Shown here: in pieces, positions 10,595 through 29,708 of the stretch
Position numbering within the stretch: the first letter of the stretch is position 1
Layout of the letters: each line of letters opens with the position of its first letter
Source of the DNA: Christensenella sp.
GTDB lineage: Bacteria > Bacillota > Clostridia > Christensenellales > CAG-138
Direction: 5' to 3'
DNA: 64,000 nt
Assembly (NCBI GenBank): GCA_034926785.1
Contig: JAYFQU010000009.1
Coordinates: forward strand, 118-64,117
Program-made: the position numbers and the translations under genes
Notes under the pieces: generated by a model
Seen by the model: the letters and a program-made list of their open reading frames with translations, nothing else
Database searches by the model: none
Told to the model about the DNA's origin: nothing

Positions 10595-12781
10595 ATGGTA
10601 TGCAAAGAATGCGGCTCGTATAACGCGGAGAACCTGAGCGTTTGTAAGGGTTGCGGCGCGAAGCTTCGGGAGGATGATACGACCGCCAGCGGCACGGAAA
10701 CCAGAGGCGCCGCGGAGGACGGAAGACCTTCGCGTGATTTTGTTAAGGCGCCGGCCTGGCCCAAGAGCGCCTATAGCGGCGCGCCGGAAAAGCCGGTTTC
10801 CGATACGCCCGCATCTTCGGGTTCTTTTCGCCCGACTATTCCGCCGCGTCCGGCGGCGAGCGCACCCACCGCGACCTGCCCGCACTGTGGCAAGCCGGTG
10901 GTTTCCGATGCGCCGTTTTGCGCATATTGCGGCCAGCGTATCGCAGGGGAGCCCGCTCCCGCTGCCGTGAGCGCGCGACCCGCGGCAAAACCCGCGCCCG
11001 CGGCCGCGCCTTCCCGCGCGACCTATTCCGCCACCGACTTTGACGACGAAGACGATGACGATTATGAGGACGAGGACGAAGAGGATTACAAGCCGAGCAA
11101 ACCCGCGAAGCGCGGCGGCAAGATGGCCCGCCGCGAAGAGCAGGAGGATCTCGACGAATATGACGACGACGAAGAAGGCTATGACGAGGAGGAATACGAC
11201 GACCTGCCGCCCAAGCGCGCCAAGGGTACGACCATTCTCTTCTGGGGCCTGATCGTACTGCTGCTCGCGCTGATTGCGATCTTCGGCATGTACATTGCCA
11301 AGAAGAACTTTGACGGGGACTTTGGCAAGATGTTCGCCTCCATCGGCAGCGTGTTCAACAAGAGCGGCACCGAGGATGTTGGCGCGGCGGATGCAACCGC
11401 CACTGCCGACCCGGAGAGCCAGATGTACACCGCCTCCATCAGCGAATATACCGATCCGACGACGAGCGAGGTCTATTTTGACATCGACATCTACGCGCCG
11501 ACGGGGAGCGCCATCCGCATTATAACGGATGCGACGCTCAAGCAGGACACCACGACGGTTCCTTCCAACAATCATGTGATCCTGCGCATCTCGCGCGATG
11601 TGTTCATGCCCAATGCGCCGGTGGACAGCGAGGTTGTCACCATTACGCCGAACATTCAGGTGATTGCGGCGGATGGCACGACCACTCAGCTCACGGTTCC
11701 GGAGATTACGGTGAATGTTCCCGCCCTCTCTATGACCATAACGGAGCCGACGACGGACACCGTAAACGCGACCTTTGACAACAGCCCGATCGCCATCATG
11801 GGTCAGGTGAATAACTACGACAGCGAGATCGCCGTATTTGTCAACGACGAACAGGTCTATGTGGACAGCACGGGTCTCTTCACCGCAAGCTACACGCCAA
11901 AGGCCGCGCCGATGATCGCCGCGCCGACCGAGGCTCCGGCTGCGAGCGCAGATCCTTCCGTAACGCCGGATCCCGCCGCTACGCCGGAAGCAAGCACCTC
12001 CCCGAGCACCTCCCCCGAGGGTTCGCTGGAGGAAACCGCGGCAACGGAAGCCCCGGCCGCAACCGACGAAACCGGTACGGCAACCGACGCGCTTACCCCG
12101 GCCGGCGGCACGGAGACCATCACCATTGAAGCGCGCAAGAACAACTGCGTCACCGCGCGCAAGGTCATCACCGTTGAGCCGTATGTCATGCAGACCATGT
12201 CGTTCACGGTAACCAATGACCTCGCGGGGCTTTCCTCCTCCGAGGGCAGCGTAACCCTGACCGGCACGGCAACGCCTGGCGCGGTCATCACTGCCACCTG
12301 CCCGTCCGCGGATGTCACATTCGGCCAGGCGGTCGTTTCCGAAACGGGGACGTTCTCCATGGTTGTCTCCCTCGCAAAGGTTGGCGCCTATGATGTCAGC
12401 CTCGTCGGCAAGCTCACGGGCTACTATGACGGTACGCAAACCGTCACGGTGGAACGTCCGCCGTCGGCCTCCTCCAGCTCGTTTAAGAAGGCTGCGGCCG
12501 ATCTGAGCAAGAGCTATGACAAGATTGCCGGCGGAACGGTCACCAGTGGGGACTTCGTCTTCACCGGAAAGATTACGGAGATTATCTCTGCCGAACCGTA
12601 TACGATCTTCCGTGTAGCGTTGTCCAACGGCACAGAGGTCATCGTTGCAAACCGCAGCGCGAAATCGACGATCAACTCTTCGGACCTGAAGGATAAGAAG
12701 CAGATTGCCGGAACGCTCAAGGGACTCTACACCGATGGCAAGACCCCGTTTATCTGGGGCTGGTTCATCTGGAACAAATAA
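10595..12781 (+). CDS. Zinc-ribbon domain membrane protein with a large extracytoplasmic region
   Basis: There are two CxxC...CxxC ribbons (CKECGSYN...CKGCGAKL and CPHCGKP...CAYCGQ). These are followed by a long D/E-rich stretch, one TM helix (TILFWGLIVLLLALIAIFGMYIA), then beta-rich domains and a P/T/A linker. Confidence 0.7.
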   Translation: MVCKECGSYNAENLSVCKGCGAKLREDDTTASGTETRGAAEDGRPSRDFVKAPAWPKSAYSGAPEKPVSDTPASSGSFRPTIPPRPAASAPTATCPHCGKPVVSDAPFCAYCGQRIAGEPAPAAVSARPAAKPAPAAAPSRATYSATDFDDEDDDDYEDEDEEDYKPSKPAKRGGKMARREEQEDLDEYDDDEEGYDEEEYDDLPPKRAKGTTILFWGLIVLLLALIAIFGMYIAKKNFDGDFGKMFASIGSVFNKSGTEDVGAADATATADPESQMYTASISEYTDPTTSEVYFDIDIYAPTGSAIRIITDATLKQDTTTVPSNNHVILRISRDVFMPNAPVDSEVVTITPNIQVIAADGTTTQLTVPEITVNVPALSMTITEPTTDTVNATFDNSPIAIMGQVNNYDSEIAVFVNDEQVYVDSTGLFTASYTPKAAPMIAAPTEAPAASADPSVTPDPAATPEASTSPSTSPEGSLEETAATEAPAATDETGTATDALTPAGGTETITIEARKNNCVTARKVITVEPYVMQTMSFTVTNDLAGLSSSEGSVTLTGTATPGAVITATCPSADVTFGQAVVSETGTFSMVVSLAKVGAYDVSLVGKLTGYYDGTQTVTVERPPSASSSSFKKAAADLSKSYDKIAGGTVTSGDFVFTGKITEIISAEPYTIFRVALSNGTEVIVANRSAKSTINSSDLKDKKQIAGTLKGLYTDGKTPFIWGWFIWNK

Positions 12782-15169: not shown

Positions 15170-15417
15170 AATAGTAGGTCGCTCCTTTCTGTTGTGCTAA
15201 CAGTATAGAAAATCAATTTGAACTTTCAATAGTACACATTTGAAGAATGCTTGACGAATTTGGGCAGCATTATGGCACGGGAAGCAGGGAAATCCCGTGC
15301 GGACACGCAAGAGCGGAAGGGGGCCTGATACAGGGGGTACATCATCACGGGAGGAAACACGGAGAAATACTGGGGAATTATGGTATAATGCAGGCAGCAC
15401 AGTATGGGGGATATGGG

Positions 15418-16353
15418 ATGCGACGGGGAATCACTGCTTTTTTTGCGGTTCTATTGGCGTTCCTATTACTCTCTGCCTGCGGTGCGGCGCCGCAAGGGCG
15501 GCAAGTGACGGCGGGCATGCCGGATTCGCCGGAGACTCCGGCGCCAAGTCCCGACCCGACAGCAAGGCCAACCTCCGCACCCAGCCTGTCGCCCGTGCCG
15601 GGCGTGGATGCGCCGTGGTATGACGCGCGCAATACGGAGCTGTTTGAGTTGATCAAGCGGGACGGGCCGGCGCGTTCGGACGCGGAGATTCGAGTTGCGA
15701 TTGATCAGATGTTCATCGATCCGGACAAGCCCATGGTTGCGCTGACCTTTGACGATGGCCCGATGCCCGGCGTAACCGATAAAATTCTGGATATTCTGGA
15801 GCGTTATCATGTGCGCGCGACCTTCTTCGTCTGCGGATGGCGCTTTCAACAGAAGTGCATGCAGGATATCGCGCGGCGTATGGTATCGCTCGGCTGTGAA
15901 ATCGGCAATCATACCATGGATCATGCGGATCTCTCCAAACAGAATATTGTGTAGAAACGGGATGCCATTGAGCAGACGAATAAGATTATCTACGACGCAA
16001 CAGGCTATGTGATGCATTCCCTCCGCCCGCCTGGCGGACACAACGAATGGGATGTGAATCGCATCGCCCGAAGCGATGATATGGCGGCCGTGCTCTGGTC
16101 GCAGAGCGGCAACGTGCATGAGTTCGACCCGGTCAAGGTGGCCGAAAACGTGCAAAAGCAGGCCGTCAACGGGCGGCAACTGCAGGATGGCGATATCGTT
16201 TTGTTGCACGACACCAAACCGCATATGGTAGACGCGGTGGAGATTTTGGTCCCGAAACTGCTGGAACAGGGATATCAGCTCGTCACGGTCTGGGAATTGC
16301 TCCATTGTTCAGAGGACGGTTTTACCCCGGGCGTGACCTACCGGCATCAGTGA
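15418..16353 (+). pseudogene. Polysaccharide deacetylase (NodB domain) lipoprotein gene interrupted by a single in-frame TAG
   Basis: Lipobox signal MRRGITAFFAVLLAFLLLSAC. NodB motifs TFDDGP and NHTMDH lie before TAG 15952-15954. Motifs LRPPGG and LLHD lie after it in the same frame (track ORFs 15247-15954 and 16009-16353 are both frame 1). Confidence 0.7.
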
Positions 16354-16420
16354 AACGCGGCTTGCCTAACATGGGGAAAGCTGCAACATGGTGAACAAGT
16401 TTTTCCTGAATACAATCCGA

Positions 16421-16446
16421 AAAACGCCTGATACGGGGCGTTTTTT
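16421..16446 (+). terminator. Intrinsic terminator
   Basis: aaaacgcc ... ggcgtttt stem-loop running into a T6 tract. Confidence 0.6.
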
Positions 16447-16475
16447 GTTTTAATTATGTTTGTTATCCAAATGAA

Positions 16476-16504
16476 TTGACGAGTTGTTCAACATGTTGTA
16501 TAAT
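16476..16504 (+). promoter_or_regulatory. Sigma-A type promoter of the GntR/DUF62/ECF cluster
   Basis: TTGACG, a 17-nt spacer, then TATAAT (16499-16504). Confidence 0.6.
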
Positions 16505-16532
16505 CCACTCAAATAACAGAGAGGCAGAGGGA

Positions 16533-17252
16533 ATGAAGATAGACCTGCACACGACGGGCGTTCCGGCCTATGTAGAAATCTATAATTCGCTGTATGCCGA
16601 TATTACGGGCGGCGTCTACCCCGCGGGCGAATGCCTGCCCGGCGAGATTGCGCTCGCGCAAAAATATCAGGTCAGCCGCAATACGCTCCGCCAGGCGATG
16701 GCGATTCTCTGCGAGGATGGTCTCTTAATCCGTTCCCGCGGAAAGGGAACGCTGGTTGCGCAGCAGCAGGAACCGAAAAACGACGGTTCGCGAAATCCAC
16801 TCACATCTTTTTCAACGGTAACGATCAAAAACACGGACATCCGATATAACTTCACCCCGCCGACGGATATTGCGCAGGCGAAGCTTGCGCTTGGCAAGAG
16901 TGACATTTTGCTGGCAAGCTATCTTGTCTATCACGGCATCGATGCGGTAATCGGCTATTCGTTTGTGCAGGTGCCGGTCAACCTGCTCTCCCGCATGCAG
17001 GTGGATGTCTCCTCGCCGGACGCGATGCACCTCTTTTTAAACGAGGAGCTCTATCAGGCGGCGAGTTATCAGGAAATCTCCCTGAAGCTCATCTTCGTAA
17101 ACGACACGGAGACGGAATATCTGAAGATTGAAGAAGGTACGCCGATTCATTTACTGGAGTGTATTCTCTTTGGCGCGGATCAAACCCCGCTGGCCAGATG
17201 CAAGCACTATATGCGTCCGGAGTACTATAAAATTCAATATACGATACGCTGA
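16533..17252 (+). CDS. GntR-family transcriptional regulator (HutC subfamily, UTRA effector domain)
   Basis: The N-terminal winged helix is LPGEIALAQKYQVSRNTLRQAMAILCEDGLLIRSRGKGTLV. The C-terminal roughly 150 aa are UTRA-like. The start was moved to ATG 16533. Confidence 0.85.
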   Translation: MKIDLHTTGVPAYVEIYNSLYADITGGVYPAGECLPGEIALAQKYQVSRNTLRQAMAILCEDGLLIRSRGKGTLVAQQQEPKNDGSRNPLTSFSTVTIKNTDIRYNFTPPTDIAQAKLALGKSDILLASYLVYHGIDAVIGYSFVQVPVNLLSRMQVDVSSPDAMHLFLNEELYQAASYQEISLKLIFVNDTETEYLKIEEGTPIHLLECILFGADQTPLARCKHYMRPEYYKIQYTIR

Positions 17253-17315
17253 GCGTAAACATGGGTCAACAGACTGTAATTCGATATTATTTGATAGGAA
17301 GCGGGGATAACGGTA

Positions 17316-18179
17316 ATGAAGCCACTCGTCATCATGTCCGACTTTGGGCTCGCCGACGGCGCGGTCAGCGCCATGTACGGGGTTGCATACTCCGTCTGCG
17401 AACAGCTCAATATCAGCAGCCTCACACACGAAATTCCGCAATACAACGCCTGGGAGGCCAGCTATCGGCTCATCCAGACCGTTGGCTACTGGCCGAAAGG
17501 AACGGTGTTTGTCTCCGTGGTTGATCCGGGCGTTGGCTCCACGCGCCGCAGCATCGCCGTAGAAACCATTGCCGGGCAATACATCATCACGCCGGACAAC
17601 GGCACGCTCACGCATGTCAAGCACATCAGCGGCATCGTCGCCGCGCGCGAGATTGACGAGCGCGTCAACCGCCTGCCCGGCTCCGGCGAGAGCTATACCT
17701 TCCACGGACGGGATATCTACGCGTATACCGGCGCGCGGCTTGCGGCAGGCGTGATCGACTTTGCCGGCGTCGGGCCGGAGGTCGATCCGGAGAGCGTAGT
17801 GGAGCTGCCGATTGCAGTTGCAAAGCTGGAAGGCGACACCATCTATGGGGATATCGACGTGCTGGATGTCCGCTTTGGCAGCCTTTGGACGAGCATTCCG
17901 CGTGAGCTGTTCCTGCAACTTGGCGTCAAGCACGGGGACCGGATCGAAATCATGATTGAAAACGGCGCGCGCCTGGTCTATCGCAACTCCCTGATCTACG
18001 CCCGCTCGTTTGCGGATGCGTTTGTCGGCGAGCCGCTGGTCTATGTCAACAGCCTCGACCGTATGGCGGTTGCGATCAATCAGGGCGACTTTTCCCGCGC
18101 CTATAACATTGGCACCGGCGCGCCCTGGACCATACAGGTGCGCAAGTCCCGCCTGAAGGAGCCGAGATATGGAGACTAG
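17316..18179 (+). CDS. SAM hydroxide adenosyltransferase family protein (DUF62; fluorinase/chlorinase superfamily), paralog 1
   Basis: Family motifs are present: IMSDFGLADGAVSAMYGV, VSVVDPGVGSTRR, ITPDNGTLTH and FHGRDIYAY. Confidence 0.8.
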   Translation: MKPLVIMSDFGLADGAVSAMYGVAYSVCEQLNISSLTHEIPQYNAWEASYRLIQTVGYWPKGTVFVSVVDPGVGSTRRSIAVETIAGQYIITPDNGTLTHVKHISGIVAAREIDERVNRLPGSGESYTFHGRDIYAYTGARLAAGVIDFAGVGPEVDPESVVELPIAVAKLEGDTIYGDIDVLDVRFGSLWTSIPRELFLQLGVKHGDRIEIMIENGARLVYRNSLIYARSFADAFVGEPLVYVNSLDRMAVAINQGDFSRAYNIGTGAPWTIQVRKSRLKEPRYGD

Positions 18180-19881
18180 CCGAAAGCCGGTTGTTACATT
18201 TTCAGACTTTTCCTTTCAATACTTTTCGCAGGCGGAGCCGACCCTGCATGAGATCAACCTGACGATCTATGAGGGGGAAAAGGTGCTCATCGTCGGCCCG
18301 TCCGGCAGCGGAAAGAGCACGCTGGGCAACTGCATCAACGGCCTGATCCCGTTTTCCTATCCCGGCGAAATCAAAGGCAGCCTGAAGGTCTGCGGCCTCG
18401 AAACCAAAAAATCCAGCATTTTTGCGCTGAGTCAGCACGTAGGCACCGTGTTGCAGGATCCGGACGGACAATTCATCGGGCTTTCGGTCGGCGAGGACAT
18501 CGCCTTTGCGCTGGAAAACGAGTGCGTGCGGCAAGAGAAAATGAAGCAGATCGTCTCCGATACCGCCGCGCTGGTGGATATGGACGGGTTGCTCAACGCC
18601 TCTCCGTTTGAACTCTCCGGCGGGCAGAAGCAGCGCGTCTCGTTTGCGGGAGTGATGGTGCACGAGGTGGAGGCGCTGCTCTTTGACGAGCCGCTGGCAA
18701 ATCTTGACCCCGCGACGGGCAAGACCGCGATCGATCTGATCGACCGTATCTCGCAGGACTACCATAAGACGGTCGTGATCATCGAGCACAGGCTCGAGGA
18801 TGTGTTGTATCGCCGTGTGGATCGCGTGATTGTTATGTCCGAAGGGCGGATTGTTGCGGATCTGTCGCCGGACGCGCTCATGGCGGCGGATATCCTCGTC
18901 AATCTCGGGATCCGCGAGCCGCTGTATGTCACAGCGCTGAAATACGCCGGCGTTCCCGTAACGGAACAACTCCGCGCGGGGCGGATCGACACGCTGGATG
19001 TGGACGCCGTGAAGGGCGCGCTATCGGCCTGGGACGCGGCGCAGCCGGAACGCGCGCCCAAGCAACCCGGGGAAGCGATCCTTTCCGCACGGGACTTGAG
19101 CTATCGCTATGTGGAGCAGAGGCCGATTCTGAAGCACCTGAATTTCTCCATCGAGGCGGGCGAGATGGTCAGCCTCGTTGGCACCAACGGCGCGGGCAAG
19201 AGTACGCTTGCCAAGGTGATCACCGGCATCTGCAAGGATCCCGAGGGCAGTCTGCTTTTCCACGGCGGCGTGATGGACAACTGGACGATTCACGAACGCA
19301 GCGGGAAGATTGGCTACGTCATGCAGAATCCCAACCAGATGATCTGCAAGTCCATGATCTATGACGAGGTTGCGCTGGGGCTCAGGCTTCGCGGCATGAA
19401 CGAGGAGGAGATCAAGCCGAAGGTAGAGCATGCCCTCAAGATCTGCGGCCTTTCCCCATTTCGAAAGTGGCCCATCTCCGCGCTCTCATTCGGGCAGAAA
19501 AAGCGCGTTACCATCGCGAGCGTGCTCGTGCTGGAGCCGGAGCTGATCATTCTCGACGAGCCGACGGCGGGGCAGGACTACCGGCACTATACCGAGATCA
19601 TGGAGTTTTTGCGCTCGCTCAACGAGAACGGAACGACGATCCTGCTCATCACGCACGATATGCACCTAATGCTGGAATATACGCCGCATGCCATCGTGCT
19701 GCATGCCGGGGAGATTCTGCTTGACGGCACGGCGGTGCAGGCGCTCACCAACGAGGAGATCGCCGCGCGCGCAAGCCTGAAGGTGACATCGCTTTATCAG
19801 CTGGCCTCCCGCGCGGGACTGCCGGACGGAGAAGCGTTTGTGCAGCATTTTATCGACTATGAGAGGAGTACGGCTCGATGA
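18169..19881 (+). CDS. ECF transporter ATPase, fused EcfA1-EcfA2 (two ABC domains)
   Basis: 570 aa with two Walker A sites (GPSGSGKS and GTNGAGKS), two signature motifs (LSGGQKQR and LSFGQKKR) and two Walker B sites (LLFDEP and IILDEP). It overlaps the upstream gene by 11 nt. Confidence 0.85.
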   Translation: METSRKPVVTFSDFSFQYFSQAEPTLHEINLTIYEGEKVLIVGPSGSGKSTLGNCINGLIPFSYPGEIKGSLKVCGLETKKSSIFALSQHVGTVLQDPDGQFIGLSVGEDIAFALENECVRQEKMKQIVSDTAALVDMDGLLNASPFELSGGQKQRVSFAGVMVHEVEALLFDEPLANLDPATGKTAIDLIDRISQDYHKTVVIIEHRLEDVLYRRVDRVIVMSEGRIVADLSPDALMAADILVNLGIREPLYVTALKYAGVPVTEQLRAGRIDTLDVDAVKGALSAWDAAQPERAPKQPGEAILSARDLSYRYVEQRPILKHLNFSIEAGEMVSLVGTNGAGKSTLAKVITGICKDPEGSLLFHGGVMDNWTIHERSGKIGYVMQNPNQMICKSMIYDEVALGLRLRGMNEEEIKPKVEHALKICGLSPFRKWPISALSFGQKKRVTIASVLVLEPELIILDEPTAGQDYRHYTEIMEFLRSLNENGTTILLITHDMHLMLEYTPHAIVLHAGEILLDGTAVQALTNEEIAARASLKVTSLYQLASRAGLPDGEAFVQHFIDYERSTAR

Positions 19882-20711
19882 AAGCGAAACTCTTTGACTA
19901 TGTTGAGCGGCACAATATCGTCTACGACCTTTCCGGCGTGACGAAACTCTTCTGCTTTCTGCTGCTGACGGCGGCGGTCATGTTTTCCTACGATATCCGC
20001 GCAATTGCGGTCATCATGGTGCTGTCTCTCGTGTTCTTAAAGATGTCCCAGATTCAGTTTCGCCAGATCAAGCTGATGCTTTTATACGTGCTGGTGTTTC
20101 TGGTGTTTAACTTTGTGCTCACGTTTGTCTTCAGCCCGACCTATGGTGTGGATATCTATGGCACGAAGCATGTGCTCTTTACAATCGCAGGCCGCTATGT
20201 GGTGACGAGCGAGCAGATGCTCTATCAGGTGACCAAGACGCTCAAATATGCCTCCGTCGTGCCGCTTGGCATCATCTTTTTCCTCTCAACCAACCCGAGC
20301 GAGCTCGCCGCCTCCATCAATCGCGCGGGGGTCAGCTATAAGGCGGCGTTTGCCTTTTCACTGACGCTGCGCTATTTTCCGGATTTGATTCGGGACTATC
20401 AGGATATCTCCGCTGCGCAGCAATGCCGCGGGTTGGATCTCTCAAAAAAAGAAAAGTTGGGCACCCGCCTCAAGAACATACTAAACATCACGATTCCGCT
20501 GATTTTCTCTACGCTCGACCGCATCGAGACCATCTCCAATACGATGGATCTGCGCGGGTTTGGCAAGGAGAAGAAGCGCACCTGGTACTCCGCTAAGCCG
20601 CTCAAGCGAAACGATATCCTCGCGCTGAGCCTTGCGCTCTGCCTGTTTCTCGGCACCGTCGCACTCAGCGTCTTTATCAATCACAGCAAGTTCTGGAATC
20701 CGTTTGTCTGA
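19878..20711 (+). CDS. ECF transporter transmembrane T component (EcfT/CbiQ family)
   Basis: 277-aa polytopic membrane protein directly coupled (ATGA overlap) to the fused ATPase. It contains a conserved Arg-containing coupling helix region (LTLRYFPDL..., STLDRIETISNTMDLRGF). Confidence 0.8.
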   Translation: MKAKLFDYVERHNIVYDLSGVTKLFCFLLLTAAVMFSYDIRAIAVIMVLSLVFLKMSQIQFRQIKLMLLYVLVFLVFNFVLTFVFSPTYGVDIYGTKHVLFTIAGRYVVTSEQMLYQVTKTLKYASVVPLGIIFFLSTNPSELAASINRAGVSYKAAFAFSLTLRYFPDLIRDYQDISAAQQCRGLDLSKKEKLGTRLKNILNITIPLIFSTLDRIETISNTMDLRGFGKEKKRTWYSAKPLKRNDILALSLALCLFLGTVALSVFINHSKFWNPFV

Positions 20712-20795
20712 TGTGCGTGCGGCTGCCGGATCGCAAAAAAAATGCAATGCCCGGCTGCGAACGCGGCCAACGTGAAAATCAAAAAGGAGAACAAC

Positions 20796-21641
20796 ATGAA
20801 ACCCATTCTGGTCTTTCAAACCGACTTTACCTATAAGGAAGGCGCGGTCAGCTCTATGTACGGCGTGGTCAAGAGCGTGGATCGTGAGCTGGAAATCTTT
20901 GACGGCACGCATGAGCTGCCGCAGTATGACACCTGGAGCGCGAGCTACCGCCTGTATCAGAGCCTGCGGTTTTGGCCCGAGGGCACGATCTATGTCTCCG
21001 TGGTCGATCCCGGTGTCGGCACCGCGCGCAGAGCCTGCGTCGCGAAGGTCAACGGAGGATACTATGTTGTGACGCCCGATAACGGAGCGCTCACGCATAT
21101 CGACCGTGAGATGGGCATCCTTGAGGTGCGCGAGATCGACGAGAGCGTCAACCGCCTCCGCGGCAAGGACACCGAGGGCGTCGCGATTTTTCACGGGCGC
21201 GACCTCTTCGGCTATACCGCCGCGCGCCTTGCCAGCGGCATTATCGACTATGAGGGCGTCGGCCCCGCGTATCCCGTCAGCGAGGTCGTTCGGCACAAAA
21301 TGCACGAGCCGACGGTCGGCGCGGGCAAGGCGGAGGGGATCTTCGAGATCGACGACCCAAACTTTGGCAACCTCTGGACGAATATCCCCACGCGGCTGTT
21401 CTTCGAAAGCGGGTTTGCCTATGGGGACGCCGTCCACGTCACCGTGCAGCACGCGGGCAAGACCGTGTTTGACCAGAATGTGCTTTTCCATCAGAGCTTT
21501 GGTTTTGCCAAGCAGGGCGAACCCATCATCTATAACAATGAGTTGATGAAGATTGCCCTTGCGGTGAGCTGCGGCAGCTTCAAAGAGCGTTATTCCCTTT
21601 CCTTTGGCGCGGACTGGCGCGTCTGCTTCGCAAAGGCCTGA
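20796..21641 (+). CDS. SAM hydroxide adenosyltransferase family protein (DUF62), paralog 2
   Basis: It has the same motifs as paralog 1: FQTDFTYKEGAVSSMYGV, VSVVDPGVGTARR, VTPDNGALTH and FHGRDLFGY. The start was moved to ATG 20796 after AAAGGAGA. Confidence 0.8.
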   Translation: MKPILVFQTDFTYKEGAVSSMYGVVKSVDRELEIFDGTHELPQYDTWSASYRLYQSLRFWPEGTIYVSVVDPGVGTARRACVAKVNGGYYVVTPDNGALTHIDREMGILEVREIDESVNRLRGKDTEGVAIFHGRDLFGYTAARLASGIIDYEGVGPAYPVSEVVRHKMHEPTVGAGKAEGIFEIDDPNFGNLWTNIPTRLFFESGFAYGDAVHVTVQHAGKTVFDQNVLFHQSFGFAKQGEPIIYNNELMKIALAVSCGSFKERYSLSFGADWRVCFAKA

Positions 21642-21696
21642 GCGCGGGGCCGAATTTCGCGCGTTGTGTTGTGTTTGAACAAGCCCGCCTGTTGGC

Positions 21697-21726
21697 TTGA
21701 CAAATCATATACGATATGTATAGTAT
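21697..21726 (+). promoter_or_regulatory. Possible internal sigma-A promoter for the S-component gene
   Basis: TTGACA, an 18-nt spacer, then TAGTAT. Confidence 0.45.
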
Positions 21727-21764
21727 GGAACAGGAATGATAATGATTATGGGAGGTAATGTCTG

Positions 21765-22328
21765 ATGAAGAAAATGTTCAAAGTAACCACAAAAACCATC
21801 GTTGCAACCGGACTCGGCGCCGCTCTATTTGCGCTGCTGTTCATGTATGTGAAGGTTCCCACCGGCATTCCCGAAACCTCCATCCAGACCGCATACGGCC
21901 TCGGCGCGTTCTTTGCGGCGCTGTTTGGTCCTATCGCGGGCGGCCTGATCGCGTTCATCGGCCATGCGATCTCCGACGCTTTGCAGTATGGCTCACCCTG
22001 GTGGAGCTGGGTTATCGCAAGCGGCGTGTCCATGTTCCTCGTCGGTCTGGTCTATACGAAGCTCAAGGCGGATGAAGGCGAGTTTGGCTGGAAGGACGTC
22101 CTTCGCTTTAATATCTATCAGATTCTGGCCAACGTCATTGCCTGGATTGTTGTAGCGCCGGTGCTCGATATCGTCATCTATGCGGAGCCCGTGAACCTCG
22201 TCTTCACGCAGGGCGCGGTCGCCTGCCTTTGGAATGCGATTGCCTGCGGCGTGATCGGCACGCTGCTGCTCTTCGCCTATGCCAAGATCCGCCCGAAGAA
22301 GGGCAGCCTCTCCAAGGAAGAGGAGTAA
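21765..22328 (+). CDS. ECF transporter substrate-specific S component (resembles the UPF0397/HtsT-like group; substrate unknown)
   Basis: 187 aa with about 5-6 TM helices. The N-terminal pattern TKTIVATGLGAALFALLFMYVKVPTGIPETSIQTAYGLGAFFAALFGPIAGGLIAFIGHAISD is typical of ECF S components. RBS is GGGAGG. Confidence 0.7.
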   Translation: MKKMFKVTTKTIVATGLGAALFALLFMYVKVPTGIPETSIQTAYGLGAFFAALFGPIAGGLIAFIGHAISDALQYGSPWWSWVIASGVSMFLVGLVYTKLKADEGEFGWKDVLRFNIYQILANVIAWIVVAPVLDIVIYAEPVNLVFTQGAVACLWNAIACGVIGTLLLFAYAKIRPKKGSLSKEEE

Positions 22329-22415
22329 TTTCCTTCGCGCTAACATGCGGTTCAACGCCAAGTGCGTGAAAATTCAGTAAAATTCAAAAAGCAGCTTTGA
22401 GTTGCTGCGGTTTCA

Positions 22416-22455
22416 AAATCTGTCGCTCGGGTACTGACCCAGGCGGCAGATTTTT
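22416..22455 (+). terminator. Intrinsic terminator after the ECF cluster
   Basis: aaatctgtcgc / gcggcagattt stem (one G:U pair) running into a T5 tract. Confidence 0.55.
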
Positions 22456-22761
22456 CTATTGTCAGGTCTATCACGCGCAGCGCTTTTCATAGAAAAAATC
22501 GAGAGAAACAGGAGATTTCACGCTTGCCGGAGCGTGGGGGGCCGAGGCGCCGTTTACGCGATAGAGCATGCTTCAACATGCAGGAATCAAAACGAAAGAT
22601 TGCAAAATCGCTTCCGGCGAACAAGCAAACAGAATTTTCGGCACATTGACTTTTCATTTGATACCAGATAAACTAACTTGTGTGGAAGCCCACAACACAT
22701 CTTCGTTTTTTCATCGAAACACCCGAAACACTATTTCATGAAAGAGGAGAGGAAATCAAAC

Positions 22762-23889
22762 ATGAAAAAAATCGTAACAATCCTGATGGCGGCACTGCTC
22801 GTGTTTGGCGCTGTTGCGTGCAAACCGGCGACCCCCGCGACGGAGGCGCCCGCCGCAGACGCAGCGGGAAAAAAGGTTTATAACGTCGTCAGCCTGGTCA
22901 ACGGAAACCTGGGCGACAAGTCCTTTTTTGACTCTGCGGAGTCCGGCCTGAAGGCCCTTCAGGACGCAGGACGCATCACCTATAAGACCATCGAGATGGG
23001 CGCAACGGACGCGGACCAGCCGAAGTGGCTGGAAACCCTGTATGAAGTTGCCGAGTCCGGTGAATACGATCTGATCATCTGCGGCACGTGGCAGATGCCC
23101 GACAACCTGAAAGAGGTTGCAACCGCATATCCGGATCAGAAATTCCTGATTTATGACACCGACTCCTATGCCGGTGAAAACGCGAATGTCGTCAACATCA
23201 GCTATAAACAGAACGACATGGGCTATCTCATCGGCGTGTTTGCGGCGGCAATGACCTCCGAAACCTCGGTGAAGAACATCAACCCGGAGAAGGTCGTCGG
23301 CTTCGTCGGCGGCGAGGACAGCCCGGTCATCAACGACTTCCTCTATGGTTTCCTGGAGGGCGTGAAGGCCACCGATCCCGAAGTCAAGGTTGACACCCGT
23401 TATGTGACCAACTATTATGACACGGCCGTTGCCAAGGAACTGGCAAGCTCAATGATCAACGACAACAAAGCGGATATCATCTGGGGCGTAGCGGGTCTGG
23501 CGGGCAATGGCGCGGCGGAAGCGGCCCAGGAATCCGGTAAAGCATGGTTCATCGGCGTGGACAGCGATCAGGAACTGACGCTGCAGGAGCAGCTGGCGGC
23601 GATCACGCTGACCTCCGGCCTTAAAAACGTCGGCCAGTCGATCATCTGGATCTTTGACCAGATGGATGCCGGCAAAACCTATTGGGGCCAGGCGGTCTAT
23701 CTTGGCCTGACCGAAGGCGGCGTAGGCATTGCGACGGAGCACAACTTCGCGACCATCGCGCCGAAGTCCGTTCAGGACAAGGTCATGGCGGCGGAAGCGG
23801 CGGTCAGAGACGGCAGCATCGTGGTTTCCAGCGCGCTGACGGACGAGACCAAGGGCGTAGTTGATCTGCGCACGGCCATGCAGCCATAA
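22762..23889 (+). CDS. BMP-family (PnrA/Med-like) ABC transporter substrate-binding lipoprotein, probably nucleoside-binding
   Basis: Lipobox MKKIVTILMAALLVFGAVAC. BMP-family segments are present: GDKSFFDSA, YDLIICGTW, VGFVGGEDSPVINDF and FIGVDSDQ. Confidence 0.85.
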   Translation: MKKIVTILMAALLVFGAVACKPATPATEAPAADAAGKKVYNVVSLVNGNLGDKSFFDSAESGLKALQDAGRITYKTIEMGATDADQPKWLETLYEVAESGEYDLIICGTWQMPDNLKEVATAYPDQKFLIYDTDSYAGENANVVNISYKQNDMGYLIGVFAAAMTSETSVKNINPEKVVGFVGGEDSPVINDFLYGFLEGVKATDPEVKVDTRYVTNYYDTAVAKELASSMINDNKADIIWGVAGLAGNGAAEAAQESGKAWFIGVDSDQELTLQEQLAAITLTSGLKNVGQSIIWIFDQMDAGKTYWGQAVYLGLTEGGVGIATEHNFATIAPKSVQDKVMAAEAAVRDGSIVVSSALTDETKGVVDLRTAMQP

Positions 23890-24182
23890 CCGGCGCAACA
23901 TAACTAAAACCGTGAAGTGAGCTTATACGGTCAGCCAGGGGGAGTGCGATAAGCGCTCCCCCGGTTTGTTACCGGACGGATAGCCGGCTTAGGCACACGC
24001 GGCTTTGAAAAAACATATCGTCCTGCGGACGGCTTGACATTGCAATTGCGCGGATCATTCTTTAATATGGATTCTAGGTAAAACCGTGGGAATCCGATTG
24101 GCCCAAAGACAAAATGGCGCGAAGATTAGCCGCAAAAACGTGCGGCGGATGATACATATTCCATCAAAGGGGAATCCATTTT

Positions 24183-25763
24183 ATGGAACAGAACAATCTG
24201 GAACAGAACGATTTGGTCGTGCAGATGAAGGGGATCACCAAGGTGTATCCCAACGGTATCGCCGCGAATCAAAGCGTTGATTTCTCCGTGCGGCGCGGGG
24301 AGATCCACGCGCTGATGGGCGAGAACGGCGCAGGCAAGAGCACGCTGATGAAGATGCTCTTCGGTCTCGAACAGCCGACTGAGGGGGAGATTGTCGTCAA
24401 TGGCGAAAGGGTTTCGCTCTCCTCGCCCACGGTTGCAATCGCCCACGGCATCGGCATGGTACACCAGCACTTTATGCTTGTGCCAAGCCTCACCGTTGCC
24501 GAAAACATCGTGCTCGGCATGGTGCCGAAAAAAAGCGGCATGTTCATCGACTTTAAAAAGGCGACGGAGCTCACAAAGGAATATTCCGAGCGCTTTAATC
24601 TCGCGGTGAATCCGGACGCGAAGGTCGTGGATATCCCCGTGGGCATGAAGCAGAAGGTGGAAATTCTCAAGGCGCTCATCCGTGGCGCGAGGATTCTCAT
24701 TCTCGACGAGCCGACCGCTGTGCTCACCACGCAGGAGACGGCCGAGCTCTTTCGCGAACTGGTGCACCTCAAGGAACAAGGATATACCATCATCTTTATC
24801 TCCCATAAGCTCAACGAAATCAAGCAGATTACCGACCGCATCACAATTATGCGCGGCGGAAAATCAATGGGCGTTTACGAAACAGCGGCAATCAGCGAGC
24901 AGGAGATCTCCCGGTTGATGGTTGGACGCGACGTTATACTGGATGTTCAGAAGGACGCGCCGAAGCCGACGGACGTCGTGCTCAAGGTGCGCAATCTGCA
25001 GTATACCAACGAATGGAACAAAAAAATGCTCGACGGCGTATCGTTCGATGTGCGAAAGGGCGAGATTCTAGGCGTTGCGGGCGTTGAAGGAAACGGACAG
25101 CGGGAGCTGGTCGATATGCTTTTCGACCTGAACGAGCCGGACGGAGGGACGGCGACCGTCAACGGGACGGATGTGATCAGCGCTCCGCAGAGCAAGATTC
25201 GCGCTCTCGGCGTCTCTCTCGTGCCGGAGGACCGCATGACCTATGGCATAGCGGAGATCGCCACCATCGAGGAAAACCTGATCTCCGACCGGTTTGAGGA
25301 GAAACGCTTCAACAAAGGCCCGCTCTTTGATATGAAGGCGATTCATGAAGAGAGCGACCGTCTGATACAGGACTATGCGGTGCTATGCAGGTCCCGCAAG
25401 CAAAAGGTTAAGATGCTCTCCGGCGGCAACATTCAAAAGGTCGTGGTCGCAAGGGAGTTTTCCAGCGACCCGACGCTGATCATTGCCGACCAGCCGACGC
25501 GCGGCATAGACGTTGGCGCAACGGAGTTTATCCGCAAGAAGCTGGTCGATCTTTCCCGCGCGGGTTCGGCGGTACTGCTGGTTTCGGCCGATCTCAACGA
25601 GGTTATGGAGCTGAGCGACAGCCTCATCGTGCTCTGCGGTGGTAAGATCGCGGCCTATTTTGAGGATACGAGTCAGCTCAACGACGAGGTGATGGGCGAA
25701 TATATGCTAGGCCTCAAGCGGCAGAGCAACGAGGAGATCGGGAGGGTGTGTCATGAAAGATAG
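24183..25763 (+). CDS. ABC transporter ATP-binding protein (duplicated ATPase, sugar/nucleoside importer type)
   Basis: 526 aa. Walker A is GENGAGKST. The first domain has signature MKQKVEILKAL and Walker B ILILDEP. The second domain has LSGGNIQKV and IIADQPTRGID. Confidence 0.85.
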   Translation: MEQNNLEQNDLVVQMKGITKVYPNGIAANQSVDFSVRRGEIHALMGENGAGKSTLMKMLFGLEQPTEGEIVVNGERVSLSSPTVAIAHGIGMVHQHFMLVPSLTVAENIVLGMVPKKSGMFIDFKKATELTKEYSERFNLAVNPDAKVVDIPVGMKQKVEILKALIRGARILILDEPTAVLTTQETAELFRELVHLKEQGYTIIFISHKLNEIKQITDRITIMRGGKSMGVYETAAISEQEISRLMVGRDVILDVQKDAPKPTDVVLKVRNLQYTNEWNKKMLDGVSFDVRKGEILGVAGVEGNGQRELVDMLFDLNEPDGGTATVNGTDVISAPQSKIRALGVSLVPEDRMTYGIAEIATIEENLISDRFEEKRFNKGPLFDMKAIHEESDRLIQDYAVLCRSRKQKVKMLSGGNIQKVVVAREFSSDPTLIIADQPTRGIDVGATEFIRKKLVDLSRAGSAVLLVSADLNEVMELSDSLIVLCGGKIAAYFEDTSQLNDEVMGEYMLGLKRQSNEEIGRVCHER

Positions 25764-26874
25764 GCGAATGCTGTGGTTTGAACTCATCCGCGGCGCGGCG
25801 GCCATCCTGCTCGCGCTCGGCGTTGGAACCATCTTCATATTTCTCAGTTCGGACGAACCGTTTACCGCGCTTCGATATCTGCTCATCGGGCCGCTCGTCT
25901 CCATCAAAGCGGGGGTAGCAAGCTTCAATACCCAGGGGTTTTATACCATCCTCGCGGCGATGATTCCGACGATCTTCACGGGCCTTGCGGTCTGCGTGAT
26001 GTTTTCGAGCAACCAGTTTAATCTTGCCGGCGAGGGTGTGGTCATGGTCGGCGGCTTTGTCGCGGCGCTTGCGGGCATTTATATCCATATGAACACAGGC
26101 TGGCACGCGGTGCTCTGCGTGCTCATTGCGGCTGTGCTCGGCGGAGCGATCATGCTCATACCCGCGCTGCTTAAGGTGAAGATCGGCGCAAGCGAGATGG
26201 TCACAAGCCTTATGCTGAACTATGTCTGCATGTTCCTGGTGCTGCATTTTCTGAATTATATTTTTGCCGACCGCAGCAAGGGTTCCACGCAGACATTTCC
26301 GTTTGCGGACACGGCGAAGATTGGCTCGCTCGTGCCCGGCGGAAGCAAGCTTACCTGGGGTTTCGTGGCCGCGCTGGTATTTGTGGCGATCATCGCGCTG
26401 TTCATGTATCGCACGCGCTGGGGATATGCCATCCGCATGATCGGCATCAATCAGGCGTTTTCCAAATACTCCGGCATGAAGGTAGGCTCCACCATCGTGC
26501 TCTCCCAGGTGATCGGCGGTGCGCTGAGCGGGCTTGGCGGCGGAATCGAGGTTCTGGGACGATATTCCACCTTCCTTTGGAAGGAACTGCCCGGCTATGG
26601 TTGGACGGGAATCACCATCGCGATCCTCGCAAAAAACAATCCTCTCCTCGTGCCTCTCGCGGCGTTCTTTATCGCCTATCTCGACAAGGGCTGCCAACTC
26701 ATGGCGACCTATTGCGATGTGCCGAGCGAAATGATAGACATCATTCAGGCGGCGATCTTCCTCTTCTTTGCTGCGGAACAGTTCCTGAGCGGCTATCGCC
26801 AGAAGATTGTTGTTAAAAATGTCAACGCCGATCTTGCCAAGGCGATCACCGCCGTGGAAAGGGGTGACGAATAA
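25753..26874 (+). CDS. ABC transporter permease (BMP-type nucleoside/sugar importer)
   Basis: 373-aa polytopic membrane protein. It is overlap-coupled to the ATPase gene. Confidence 0.8.
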   Translation: MKDRRMLWFELIRGAAAILLALGVGTIFIFLSSDEPFTALRYLLIGPLVSIKAGVASFNTQGFYTILAAMIPTIFTGLAVCVMFSSNQFNLAGEGVVMVGGFVAALAGIYIHMNTGWHAVLCVLIAAVLGGAIMLIPALLKVKIGASEMVTSLMLNYVCMFLVLHFLNYIFADRSKGSTQTFPFADTAKIGSLVPGGSKLTWGFVAALVFVAIIALFMYRTRWGYAIRMIGINQAFSKYSGMKVGSTIVLSQVIGGALSGLGGGIEVLGRYSTFLWKELPGYGWTGITIAILAKNNPLLVPLAAFFIAYLDKGCQLMATYCDVPSEMIDIIQAAIFLFFAAEQFLSGYRQKIVVKNVNADLAKAITAVERGDE

Positions 26875-27830
26875 TGTGGAATCAGCTGCTGGATACCATT
26901 CTGAAATCGGAGTTTCTGTTTTCTGTCATTCGCATTACCGCCCCGATTCTTTTTGCCGCGCTTGGCGCGGTCATCGCGGAAAAGGCGGGCGTCACCAACA
27001 TCGGTCTTGAGGGCATCATGCTCATCTCGGCGCTGTTTGGCGTGCTGTTCAGCTACTGGACGCAGAGCTGGCTTATCGGCGTGCTCGGCGCGATGATGGT
27101 CGGCGTTCTGCTGGGGCTCATGATGGGGTTCTTCGCGCTGAAGCTCAAGACGGATATCATCTTGGCCGGGATCGCGGTAAACATGATGGGCGCGGGCGGA
27201 ACGATCTTCCTACTCTATATGTTTACCGGTATGCGCGGCAACACCGGCGCGCTGGTCAGCCCCAATATCCTGATTCCGACGGTGAACATCCCGCTGATCA
27301 AGGATATCCCGATTCTGGGTGACGTTCTCTCCGGGCACGCGGTGCTGACCTATCTGGCGTTTCTGCTGGTGTGGCTCATCTGGCTGTTGCTGTATAAAAC
27401 CCCGCTGGGACTCAATATTCGGGCGGTTGGCGAAAACGCAAACGCTGCCTCCAGCGTTGGCGTCAGCGTGCTGAAGATCAAATATATCGCAATCGCCATC
27501 TCCGGCGCACTCGCCGGGTTTGGCGGTGCGTTTATGAGCATGTATTACTCGCAGGGGTGGAACAGCGGCATGGTCGCCGGGCGCGGGTTCATCGCACTTG
27601 CGGCGCAGGCGATGGGCCGCGGCGAACCCGTAGGCGCGATGTTCAGCTCCCTGCTCTTCGGCTTGGCGCAGGCTTTGCGTACTAAGGTCAGCGGCCTGCA
27701 GGGGGTTTCGAGCTATCTGGTTTCGCTCATTCCCTATGTGGTGACCATCCTCGGCCTCGTCATCTATGCGGCGAGCACCATTAAGCGCGTGAAGAAGATC
27801 CGCGCATCCAAACCTGAGGTGAAAGCATGA
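26874..27830 (+). CDS. ABC transporter permease (second permease of the BMP-type importer)
   Basis: 318-aa polytopic membrane protein. Its start overlaps the upstream stop. Confidence 0.8.
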   Translation: MWNQLLDTILKSEFLFSVIRITAPILFAALGAVIAEKAGVTNIGLEGIMLISALFGVLFSYWTQSWLIGVLGAMMVGVLLGLMMGFFALKLKTDIILAGIAVNMMGAGGTIFLLYMFTGMRGNTGALVSPNILIPTVNIPLIKDIPILGDVLSGHAVLTYLAFLLVWLIWLLLYKTPLGLNIRAVGENANAASSVGVSVLKIKYIAIAISGALAGFGGAFMSMYYSQGWNSGMVAGRGFIALAAQAMGRGEPVGAMFSSLLFGLAQALRTKVSGLQGVSSYLVSLIPYVVTILGLVIYAASTIKRVKKIRASKPEVKA

Positions 27831-28768
27831 ATAAAAAGATACCGGTGATTCTGGACGGCGATCCGGGGCACGACGACGCAATCGCGTGGGTACTGGCAAA
27901 CGCGAGTCCCATGCTCGACATCAAGGCCGTAACATCCGTTTGCGGCAACCAGACCATCGAGAAAACGACCTATAACGCGGGACGCATCATGACGCTCATC
28001 GGGCTGGATGTCCCGCTCGCGATGGGCCGGGTGAAGCCGCTCGTCGCGGACGCGATCATCGCGCCGACGGTGCACGGCAACTCCGGCCTCGACGGTCCCG
28101 CCCTGCCGGAGCCGAAGAATCAGCCGGTCGCGCAGGACGCCTGCGTGCTGATGGCGCAGATTCTGGAGCAGAGCGAAGAGCCCGTTGTGCTGATTCCAAC
28201 CGGGCCGCTGACCAACATCGCGGCGCTGATGCTGCTCTACCCGCATTTGAAGCCCAAGATCCGGCATATTTATCTCATGGGCGGCGGCATCCAATTTGGC
28301 AACTGGACGCCGGCGGCGGAGTTTAACATCCTGGTTGATCCCGAGGCGGCGGATGTCGTGTTTCGCAGCGGGGTGCCGATTACAATGGCTGGGTTGGACG
28401 TTACCGAGCGCGCGCTGGTGTTCCCGGAGGATTTCGAACGTATCCGCGCGCTGGGGAATCCCGTTGCCAAGGTGGTTGCCGAATGGTTGGATTTTTTCTA
28501 TGGGTTCCATCGCAGCATCGGCTATCCCGGCGCGCCGATTCACGACGCGGTCGCGGTTGCGGCCCTGGTCCGGCCGGAACTGATGACGGTGCAGGAGATG
28601 TATGTGGAGATCGAAACCACGGGCGACTATTGCCGCGGCGCAACGGTCGGGGACCGGCTCCATGTATTAAACAAGCCCGCCAACGCGCGCGTCATCATGG
28701 AGATCGACCGGCAGGGATTTGTGGATCTGCTTGCCGAGGCAGCGGAATACTACGGAAAGGAGGCGTAA
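27827..28768 (+). CDS. Nucleoside hydrolase (inosine/uridine-preferring family), paralog 1
   Basis: The N-terminal calcium/ribose motif is ILDGDPGHDDAIA. TGPLTNIA and EFNILVDPEAA are also present. Confidence 0.85.
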   Translation: MNKKIPVILDGDPGHDDAIAWVLANASPMLDIKAVTSVCGNQTIEKTTYNAGRIMTLIGLDVPLAMGRVKPLVADAIIAPTVHGNSGLDGPALPEPKNQPVAQDACVLMAQILEQSEEPVVLIPTGPLTNIAALMLLYPHLKPKIRHIYLMGGGIQFGNWTPAAEFNILVDPEAADVVFRSGVPITMAGLDVTERALVFPEDFERIRALGNPVAKVVAEWLDFFYGFHRSIGYPGAPIHDAVAVAALVRPELMTVQEMYVEIETTGDYCRGATVGDRLHVLNKPANARVIMEIDRQGFVDLLAEAAEYYGKEA

Positions 28769-28772
28769 GCAT

Positions 28773-29708
28773 ATGAAGAAACTGCCGATGCTGCTGGACT
28801 GCGACACGGGCGTGGACGACGCGGTCGCCATCCTGCTTTGCAAATATCTCAACAACCTGGAGCTCGTCGCCGCAACCTGCGTCGCGGGCAATGTGGAGGT
28901 AGAGAAAACCACGCTCAACACCTTGCGCGTGCTGGAACTCGCGGGCATGACCCAGATTCCCGTCTATGCCGGGGCAAAACAGCCGCTCATGGGCGTGCAG
29001 GTTATCGCCTCGCATATCCACGGGGAAAACGGACTGAATGACATGGAACTCCCCCTGCCCAAGCGCAAGCCGGAGCAGATGCCCGCCTGGGACGCGATCT
29101 ATGAATATGCGAAGAAATACGCCGGCGAGCTTGTAATCGTTGCCATCGGTCCGCTGACCAACCTCGCGCTCGCAATTGCGAAATATAAGGAACTGCCCAA
29201 ACTCGTCAAGCGCATCGTCATCATGGGCGGCGCGGCGACGGGCGGAAACATCACCCCCAGCGCGGAATTCAACGTATATGCCGACCCGGAGGCGGCGGAT
29301 ATGGTGCTCACCTGCGGCGCGGATGTGTATCTGTGCGGCCTGGACGTGACGATGGCCTCCTATTTTACGCCGGAGGAATTGGATGAACTGGCCGCGCTTG
29401 GCTCCAGACAGGCCGTGTTTGCGCGGGATGTCATGCAGGGGATCTTGCAGTTCTACCGCGCGTATTCTCTAAGCGGCGTGGCGTTTCACGACCCAGTGAC
29501 GGTGCTCTATGCAGACGACGACTCCTATTTTCAGACGGATCGCGCTGGCGTCCGCGTTGAGACGAAGGGGAGGATTACGCGCGGAAAGACCGTCACCGAC
29601 CTGTACAGCGACAAGCAGATGGAACACAACGCCTATCTTGTCACCAAGGTGGATCGCGAAGCGTTCAAGCGCCGCATGTTCGAGATCCTGGCACAATACG
29701 GGGAATAA
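28773..29708 (+). CDS. Nucleoside hydrolase (inosine/uridine-preferring family), paralog 2
   Basis: LLDCDTGVDDAVAI, IGPLTNLA and EFNVYADPEAA are present. The start was moved to ATG 28773 after AAGGAGG. Confidence 0.85.
   Translation: MKKLPMLLDCDTGVDDAVAILLCKYLNNLELVAATCVAGNVEVEKTTLNTLRVLELAGMTQIPVYAGAKQPLMGVQVIASHIHGENGLNDMELPLPKRKPEQMPAWDAIYEYAKKYAGELVIVAIGPLTNLALAIAKYKELPKLVKRIVIMGGAATGGNITPSAEFNVYADPEAADMVLTCGADVYLCGLDVTMASYFTPEELDELAALGSRQAVFARDVMQGILQFYRAYSLSGVAFHDPVTVLYADDDSYFQTDRAGVRVETKGRITRGKTVTDLYSDKQMEHNAYLVTKVDREAFKRRMFEILAQYGE

Follow-up and report, generated by a model that had tools for sequence, protein, structure and literature searches.

HtsTUV, an energy-coupling factor (ECF) transporter, was reportedly defined by Rodionov et al. 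in 2009. It makes up TCDB family 3.A.1.31, designated 'Unknown-ABC1 (U-ABC1)' and placed among the dedicated ECF transporters (PMC3654945). For bacterial DUF62 enzymes, which hydrolyse S-adenosylmethionine (SAM), it is the role that is disputed, repair of (R,S)-SAM being one proposal besides others (PMC12120602). Hydrolysis of SAM at C5′ to adenosine and methionine is the sole activity shown for DUF62 proteins that bear an Asp-Arg-His triad, and the characterised enzymes prefer the (R,S) epimer of SAM (PMC10491745; bioRxiv 10.1101/2025.08.29.672840). The triad activates water and marks the hydrolases of the superfamily, being absent from the fluorinase and chlorinase halogenases (PMC10491745). 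Here we analyse a gene cluster of Christensenella sp. (contig JAYFQU010000009.1) that combines two DUF62 paralogs, DUF62-a and DUF62-b, with a complete ECF module. It lies at 16476-22454 of a 64,000-nt stretch of DNA, referred to below as the window. We consider it very probable that this cluster is a functional unit. With moderate confidence, and on the basis of the comparative analysis, we further propose that the module may import an adenosyl-sulfonium compound, most likely SAM, and cleave it in the cytoplasm.

Gene calls combined the listing of open reading frames (ORFs) with profile searches (Pfam, NCBIfam) of the window proteins. All six plus-strand genes that had been proposed in the first-pass annotation are present, in the order given there:

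16533..17252 (+), GntR-family regulator with putative UTRA effector domain (HutC-like), 239 aa; PF00392 60 bits, NF008491 82 bits
17316..18179 (+), DUF62-a, SAM hydroxide adenosyltransferase family, halogenase-like subtype that retains the hydrolase triad, 287 aa; PF01887 162 bits, PF20257 72 bits
18169..19881 (+), fused EcfA1-EcfA2 ATPase (EcfAA′) with DUF3744 linker, 570 aa; TIGR04520 401 bits, TIGR04521 354 bits, PF12558 67 bits
19878..20711 (+), EcfT (CbiQ-family) transmembrane coupling subunit, 277 aa; PF02361 95 bits
20796..21641 (+), DUF62-b, SAM hydroxide adenosyltransferase family, 281 aa; PF01887 145 bits, PF20257 63 bits
21765..22328 (+), ECF S component, UPF0397/PRK13661 family, six helices, 187 aa; PF07155 153 bits, NF010182 224 bits

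The overlaps of starts and stops described earlier for the stretch from DUF62-a through EcfT amount to 11 nt at the DUF62-a/EcfAA′ junction and 4 nt at the EcfAA′/EcfT junction. Two positions had to be revised. The start of DUF62-b, initially set at 20742, was moved to the ATG at 20796, which is preceded by an AAGGAG ribosome-binding site; and position 16476, from which the cluster had been counted, is the −35 hexamer of a promoter, the coding sequence of the GntR regulator beginning at ATG 16533, the same start as in seven aligned relatives. The UTRA domain of this regulator scores weakly (21.5 bits against a cut-off of 23.8); in the ortholog of locus L013, 75% identical to it, the domain scores 30.1 bits, above the cut-off. 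As in group I ECF systems, that is, dedicated modules, S, T and two ABC ATPase domains are encoded together (16.5-22.3 kb), and the module is predicted from these sequences to be an ATP-dependent importer of a specific substrate.

The linkage of DUF62 to the transporter was followed in an alignment scan of the S component with one genome per species, which yielded 80 loci (numbered with the prefix L) whose S proteins are at least 68% identical to that of the window. By label, 53 are from Bacillota, 24 from Chloroflexota (Anaerolineae or other) and 3 from Spirochaetales; the Bacillota loci comprise Christensenellaceae-like ones, which are the closest (90–96%), as well as Lachnospiraceae, Oscillospiraceae, Clostridiaceae, Tissierellia and Peptostreptococcaceae. 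The six window proteins were mapped onto these loci, and linkage was counted in the 49 of them with full flanks (5.5 kb or more to either side of S). EcfAA′ and EcfT stand beside S in 47 of these 49, and at least one a- or b-type DUF62 lies within 7 kb of S in 46, both types being found in 27 loci and exactly one in 19. The 47th DUF62-linked locus is L038, in which a more canonical DUF62 (NF058624, 180 bits) is located directly upstream of S; such more canonical types also take the place of a/b beside the same transporter in L062 and L094. The occurrence of different DUF62 subtypes beside the same transporter speaks for their generic activity, SAM hydrolysis, being what matters. Two gene orders are found, (regulator)-a-AA′-T-b-S and S-AA′-T-b-(GNAT)-a, and their flanks are unrelated. 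An arrangement that recurs in 47 of 49 loci is far beyond chance. The first-pass annotation had made its claim of a functional unit depend on conservation of the linkage in related genomes, and with DUF62 present in those 47 loci the claim stands: the DUF62-ECF linkage is kept across three phyla, two gene orders, differing flanks and differing DUF62 subtypes.

More distant S components, at about 39–46% identity, show the linkage too: DUF62 accompanies them in three of five loci, the exceptions being L084 and L093. Locus L086, with an S component 46% identical, has the order S-AA′-T-DUF62, and in the group at ~39% identity DUF62 is found upstream of S in L094 and convergent after EcfT in L095. 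The L094 contig is Spirochaetales-like, with the order DUF62-S-AA′-T, and carries a convergent SAM synthetase gene, metK, directly after EcfT (11135-12268, −); this adjacency, a single case, fits the SAM theme. Between Clostridia and the metagenome-assembled genomes of Anaerolineae/Spirochaetales (L028, L038–L083), the S components are ~70% identical and the DUF62-b proteins 65–72%. Identity this high is unusual across phyla and suggests that the whole module moves horizontally, binning errors being possible. When the ORFs of the loci were clustered, no more than four families proved to be widely shared. In a Pfam census of 93 genes from the flanks, GntR was the only other frequent family. Neither approach revealed another conserved partner in a pathway; only GntR/UTRA and GNAT recur. 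As for the cluster of the window itself, its sequence turned up only in DNA metagenome runs, from groundwater, sludge and wastewater.

DUF62-a and DUF62-b are 43% identical. Both comprise N- and C-terminal SAM_HAT domains (PF01887 and PF20257) and keep the triad, which agrees with their initial assignment to the DUF62 hydroxide adenosyltransferase family. The best solved relative of DUF62-a is the chlorinase SalL (E 9e-38), whereas that of DUF62-b is the hydrolase-type 2zbu (E 2e-34). Conservation reaches at least 95% at the ribose-binding Asp and in the Asp-Arg-His triad, as judged from 31 sequences of the a type and 51 of the b type; these residues correspond to D9 and D70/R77/H130 in DUF62-a, the triad of DUF62-b being D71/R78/H133, and the triad residues align to VIDPGVGTERR and FHGRD of PH0463. 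Judged from the conserved triad, both copies look like competent hydroxide adenosyltransferases. With StDUF62, PH0463, SaciSAMH and HvSAMH they share the PF01887 and PF20257 domains, the ribose-binding Asp and the triad, and the predicted chemistry is the same. They differ from the characterised (R)-SAM hydrolases in forming distinct subfamilies and in occurring as a conserved pair within a transporter operon. In archaea, DUF62 is instead associated with a triphosphate tunnel metalloenzyme and an NMN adenylyltransferase (bioRxiv 10.1101/2025.08.29.672840). Neither paralog reaches the equivalog cut-off of the (R)-SAM hydrolase profile NF058624 (131.6 bits for a and 113.9 for b, cut-off 350) or that of NF053629 (99.5 and 88.6 bits, cut-off 470). 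Fluorinase FlA and chlorinase SalL have the same fold and belong to the same superfamily, but these halogenases lack the triad that both paralogs possess; identity as SAM-dependent halogenases was rejected on this ground and on the TIGR04507 scores (97 bits for a and 71 for b, against a cut-off of 400).

Fixed positions tell the a and b clades apart, one example being the C-terminal nucleoside-binding motif (FGS in a, FGN in b). Of the two paralogs, DUF62-b has the more constant linkage to the transporter, and it adjoins EcfT in most loci. Loci with a single DUF62 have the b type in most cases and only the a type in a few. Because loci with only b or only a exist, the two need not pair, and with 19 full-flank loci encoding a single DUF62 an obligate a/b heteromer is unlikely.

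The S component matches the NF010182 profile over its full length (224 bits, cut-off 99; residues 4–185 against positions 2–183 of 183), and a Faecalicatena ortholog, 77% identical, is named 'UPF0397 protein' in UniRef. Placement in the UPF0397 group, as originally suggested, is therefore upheld. The system shares with HtsTUV its group I ECF type, T and ATPase genes of its own and a small S component of six helices, and neither has an assigned substrate. The UPF0397/PRK13661 family is probably the orphan HtsTUV/U-ABC1 group. The protein is named 'ECF-type riboflavin transporter substrate-binding protein' by NCBI, and Pfam and NCBIfam file it likewise. RibU-type S components (3p5n, 5kbw) share PF07155 and the six-helix fold with it, at a TM-score of about 0.6; however, the module described here is dedicated rather than shared, has constant DUF62 partners and is devoid of an FMN riboswitch. 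When an AlphaFold2 (AF2) model of the S component (pLDDT 95.8) was used for a fold search, RibU, FolT, BioY, ThiT and PanT came out about equal (TM-score 0.56–0.66, with 0.56–0.63 for the first four; identity 13–21%). RibU was the top match by a small margin only, with 16–17% identity to 3p5n and 5kbw in the structural alignment, and phmmer gave no significant similarity to the solved RibU 3p5n (E 0.23, 14.7 bits).

In Firmicutes, ribU is typically controlled by an FMN riboswitch, and methionine/SAM supply genes are often under the control of a SAM riboswitch (S-box). A search with Rfam found no FMN, TPP, B12, preQ1, THF or SAM riboswitch, and none of any other class, near the cluster in the window or in 14 related loci. 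Sequence, fold and riboswitch searches gave no specific support for the riboflavin-transporter label. Residues that are invariant or nearly so in the S alignment include D71, D135, W79, W82, Y139, H67 and Q149, and the helix map of the AF2 model places the conserved residues in the protein's outer half, the part in which S components bind their cargo. Two carboxylates together with aromatic side chains would match a ligand that is both cationic and aromatic. A survey of 150 representative S homologs showed no Rosetta-stone fusion involving DUF62, neither DUF62-S nor DUF62-ATPase. The long homologs P0210, P0267, P0170, P0171 and P0203 carry PBP_dimer, CitMHS, ABC ATPase, guanylate cyclase and HD fusions, and those of P0210 and P0267 look like chimeras of assembly or gene calling. 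In P0170 (820 aa), the S component is joined to a double ABC ATPase in a natural S-EcfAA′ fusion, which supports a dedicated partnership of S and ATPase in this family.

The module is delimited by two terminators and contains two promoter-like sites:

16418..16447 (+), intrinsic terminator that ends the upstream gene, left module boundary; 12-bp stem followed by a T-run
16476..16504 (+), promoter P1, TTGACG-17-TATAAT; 11/12 match to the sigma-70-type consensus
21697..21724 (+), internal promoter P2 for the S gene, TTGACA-16-TATAGT; 11/12 match to the consensus
22415..22454 (+), intrinsic terminator, right module boundary; hairpin followed by a U-rich tail

Both terminators fold better than any of 200 shuffled sequences, the left one with a dG of -16.4 kcal/mol (z -5.0; 0/200) and the right one with -27.4 kcal/mol (z -5.7; 0/200); the latter is the terminator that had been expected near 22416. 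By contrast with the single operon under one promoter that had been proposed at first, a second, conserved promoter, P2, precedes the S gene within the 123-nt gap between DUF62-b and S. In nine close relatives the −35 hexamer, a 12-bp palindrome in the spacer (consensus ATCGTATACGAT) and the −10 hexamer of P2 are kept, the remainder of the gap being variable; in the window this palindrome reads ATCATATACGAT (21704-21715), with one mismatch to the consensus. The P1 spacer likewise contains an operator-like palindrome, TGTTcAACA / CAACATGTTG, at about 16485-16498. Its consensus (ATGTTgAACAT) is kept together with the −35 and −10 hexamers in seven relatives, and the DNA upstream diverges. The two palindromes are candidate operators, one or both of them perhaps bound by the GntR regulator. 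A single regulator site common to P1 and P2 was considered and rejected: the palindromes differ, and the P2 motif was not found at P1. A hairpin after DUF62-b was likewise dismissed as a terminator, since it does not outperform shuffled sequence (z -0.6); transcription from P1 could thus continue into S.

GntR/UTRA regulators are located beside the module in three settings, namely in Christensenellaceae-like loci, in Lachnospiraceae, where they are fused to a GNAT domain, and in Tissierellia/Peptostreptococcaceae loci. A PF12746-type GNAT is found in 11 loci, either on its own or fused to the N-terminus of the regulator. The stand-alone form lies between DUF62-b and DUF62-a in L044, L053 (12920-13747), L060 and L072, and the fused form, attached to GntR/UTRA, is present in seven Lachnospiraceae loci: L002 (4828-6405), L022–L025, L027 and L029. 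Stand-alone and fused GNATs are homologous to each other, at 30% identity (E 8e-45), and might act as an enzyme or as a sensor. No such GNAT is encoded in the window.

Downstream of the cluster lies a nucleoside utilisation locus (22759-31692, +), which encodes a Bmp/PnrA binding protein, an ABC ATPase, two BPD_transp_2 permeases, two IU-nucleoside hydrolases, a PfkB kinase and, at 29787-30770, a 327-aa ORF with no Pfam match. Its content is as the first-pass annotation described it, but the weight placed there on its position was too great, adjacency being lineage-specific. Homologs of Bmp and the nucleoside hydrolases follow S only in L004–L006, the closest relatives; in L013 they are elsewhere or inverted, and in other families they are absent, so the locus was rejected as part of the unit. 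Upstream, a NodB-type polysaccharide deacetylase gene (15247-16353, +) is interrupted by a single in-frame TAG at 15952-15954, beyond which the frame stays open for another 133 codons that include the RPPGG and LLHD motifs. L004, L005 and L006 have intact syntenic orthologs with D, G or S in place of the TAG, which is either a nonsense mutation (a pseudogene) or a sequencing error. Two RNA elements elsewhere in the window, outside the cluster and unrelated to it, are a T-box leader (118 bits; 49730-49972, −) and a c-di-AMP riboswitch of the ydaO type (95 bits; 59474-59618, +).

We propose that the cluster may be a self-contained, horizontally mobile module for uptake and cleavage. The group I ECF importer, consisting of the UPF0397-type S component, EcfT and the fused EcfA1A2, would bring in an adenosyl-sulfonium compound, most likely SAM scavenged from the surroundings. 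On the assumption that part of the scavenged extracellular SAM has turned into the inactive (R,S) epimer, this epimerisation could, speculatively, explain why a hydrolase travels with the importer. The DUF62 enzymes, of which b is nearly always present and a is a frequent second copy, would cleave the cargo at C5′ by hydroxide attack, and the resulting adenosine and L-methionine would enter general metabolism; in this lineage alone, adenosine could feed the adjacent nucleoside hydrolases and the PfkB kinase (ribokinase). P1 would drive the genes from the regulator through DUF62-b, and the separate P2 would drive S. The HutC-type GntR/UTRA regulator is likely a repressor that would be released by the cargo or its product, and such a repressor, in place of an S-box, fits substrate-induced scavenging better than biosynthetic supply. 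The effector of the regulator, the direction of flux and the division of labour between a and b are inferred. The opposite direction, synthesis or export, had initially been left open; it finds no support, since ECF systems are importers and both DUF62 copies keep the hydrolytic triad. More tentatively, and as a possibility that we hold to be rather doubtful in full, the UPF0397 ECF system might be the first primary-active bacterial SAM importer, with (S,S)-SAM falling to the halogenase-like a type and (R,S)-SAM to the canonical-like b type, such that the imported pool would be converted completely to methionine and adenosine.

Several observations weigh against import and cleavage of SAM. The cargo is a putative one, assigned through guilt by association and the sole known activity of DUF62. 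The paralogs score far below the equivalog cut-offs, so their substrate could differ from that of the characterised enzymes, and for at least some DUF62 enzymes a physiological role in SAM hydrolysis has been called into doubt (PMC12120602). To import a costly cofactor just for hydrolysis looks wasteful; neither an S-box nor any other SAM riboswitch is found near the cluster, 15 loci having been searched; and the GNAT that recurs in 11 loci is without a place in an import-and-cleave model. Exceptions to the linkage are also known: the S gene is solitary in L047 and L049, L084 and L093 consist of S-AA′-T without DUF62, and in two Anaerolineales loci, L065 (3449-5182, −) and L075 (10158-11735, −), a DUF1684 tandem pair follows EcfT in convergent orientation, at the usual place of DUF62-b. 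An alternative is the same architecture with a different cargo, namely another 5′-substituted adenosine with a good leaving group, in which DUF62 would swap the 5′ substituent for water. Candidates are decarboxylated SAM, other SAM-derived sulfoniums, 5′-halo-5′-deoxyadenosines, and 5′-O-sulfamoyl or aminoacyl-adenylate-mimicking nucleoside antibiotics, and GNAT, where present, would acetylate the amine or amino-acid moiety that is released. It would be in keeping with this alternative that a and b both fall short of equivalog level with respect to the characterised (R)-SAM hydrolases, that DUF62-a is closest to the chlorinase SalL and that the two diverge in the nucleoside-binding motif (FGS versus FGN). 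GNAT in 11 loci would suit an amine in need of acetylation, and control is by a catabolic-type GntR regulator and not by a riboswitch. Nevertheless, the replacement of a/b by canonical DUF62 types in L038, L062 and L094 favours generic SAM hydrolysis, and an importer would be an odd partner for the detoxification of antibiotics. Moreover, such adenosine compounds are generally much rarer than SAM in the habitats of the module (gut, rumen, sludge and groundwater). We regard a cargo of this kind as unlikely.

A cargo that is not adenosyl at all, such as a vitamin (e.g. flavin) or methionine or a precursor of it, would leave to DUF62 the clearance of intracellular (R,S)-SAM by a merely co-expressed enzyme. 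The filing of the S component under 'ECF-type riboflavin transporter' by NCBIfam and Pfam, RibU as the top fold match, if by a small margin, and the existence of some S orthologs without DUF62 are in line with this, as is the action of characterised DUF62 enzymes on endogenous (R,S)-SAM (bioRxiv 10.1101/2025.08.29.672840). However, sequence comparison with solved RibU yields nothing significant (E 0.23), FolT and BioY resemble the fold just as closely, the 15 loci lack FMN and other vitamin riboswitches, and a linkage that holds in 47/49 loci across phyla, orders and subtypes would be difficult to account for unless a substrate or pathway were shared. Nor would a housekeeping repair enzyme be expected to travel with a transporter in what appears to be horizontal transfer, and we judge such a cargo to be distinctly unlikely. 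Most improbable is a role of the DUF62 proteins mainly in binding or trapping the substrate in the cytoplasm, or in regulating the ECF ATPase, rather than in catabolism. Co-translation and matched stoichiometry are suggested by the overlap of the DUF62-a stop with the EcfAA′ start and by the position of DUF62-b close behind EcfT, and StDUF62 is slow and easily inhibited, its trimerisation being promoted by adenosine (PMC12120602). Yet a triad that is at least 95% conserved in both clades would be needless for binding alone. Tight translational coupling is not required, given that DUF62 occurs upstream, downstream or convergent, and fusions of DUF62 with S or with the ATPase were not seen among the 150 representative S homologs.

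If the module does import and cleave SAM, it can be compared with several importers that are encoded together with a processing enzyme, including YkoEDC with TenA, the queuosine-precursor transporters QueT/QrtT with salvage hydrolases, and MtaTUV/MtsTUV for methylthioadenosine or methionine precursors. In all of these, as here, a high-affinity importer is combined with a cytoplasmic enzyme that makes usable metabolites; the differences lie in the enzyme, which here is DUF62, in the implied cargo, and in GntR/UTRA control as opposed to their typical riboswitches. Transporters known to carry SAM are the DMT-type proteins of Rickettsia/Chlamydia, yeast Sam3 and mitochondrial SAMC. They would have the same cargo if the model is right, but they are unrelated secondary carriers that supply the cofactor, whereas the system proposed here would be a primary-active ECF importer coupled to the breakdown of SAM. 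The parts of the cluster are ordinary families, and their combination resembles other modules of an importer plus a salvage enzyme. MtaTUV and MtsTUV are listed as TCDB families in PMC3654945. No description of a DUF62-ECF linkage or of an ECF SAM importer was found in a full-text literature search, an earlier mention being possible.

The UPF0397/PRK13661 S components form a widespread orphan ECF family that annotation pipelines label 'riboflavin transporter' without specific evidence. The linkage of DUF62 and ECF genes across phyla merges two problems, the cargo of these orphan S components and the role of DUF62, into one testable hypothesis with a short list of ligands. If the hypothesis is true, ECF transporters would gain a new class of substrate and a propagated annotation would be corrected. 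With SAM as the cargo, SAM would become an exchanged nutrient in anaerobic communities such as those of the gut, rumen, digesters and groundwater. Furthermore, should the a and b types split the two epimers between them, the role of bacterial DUF62 enzymes would be nutritional, instead of or besides repair.

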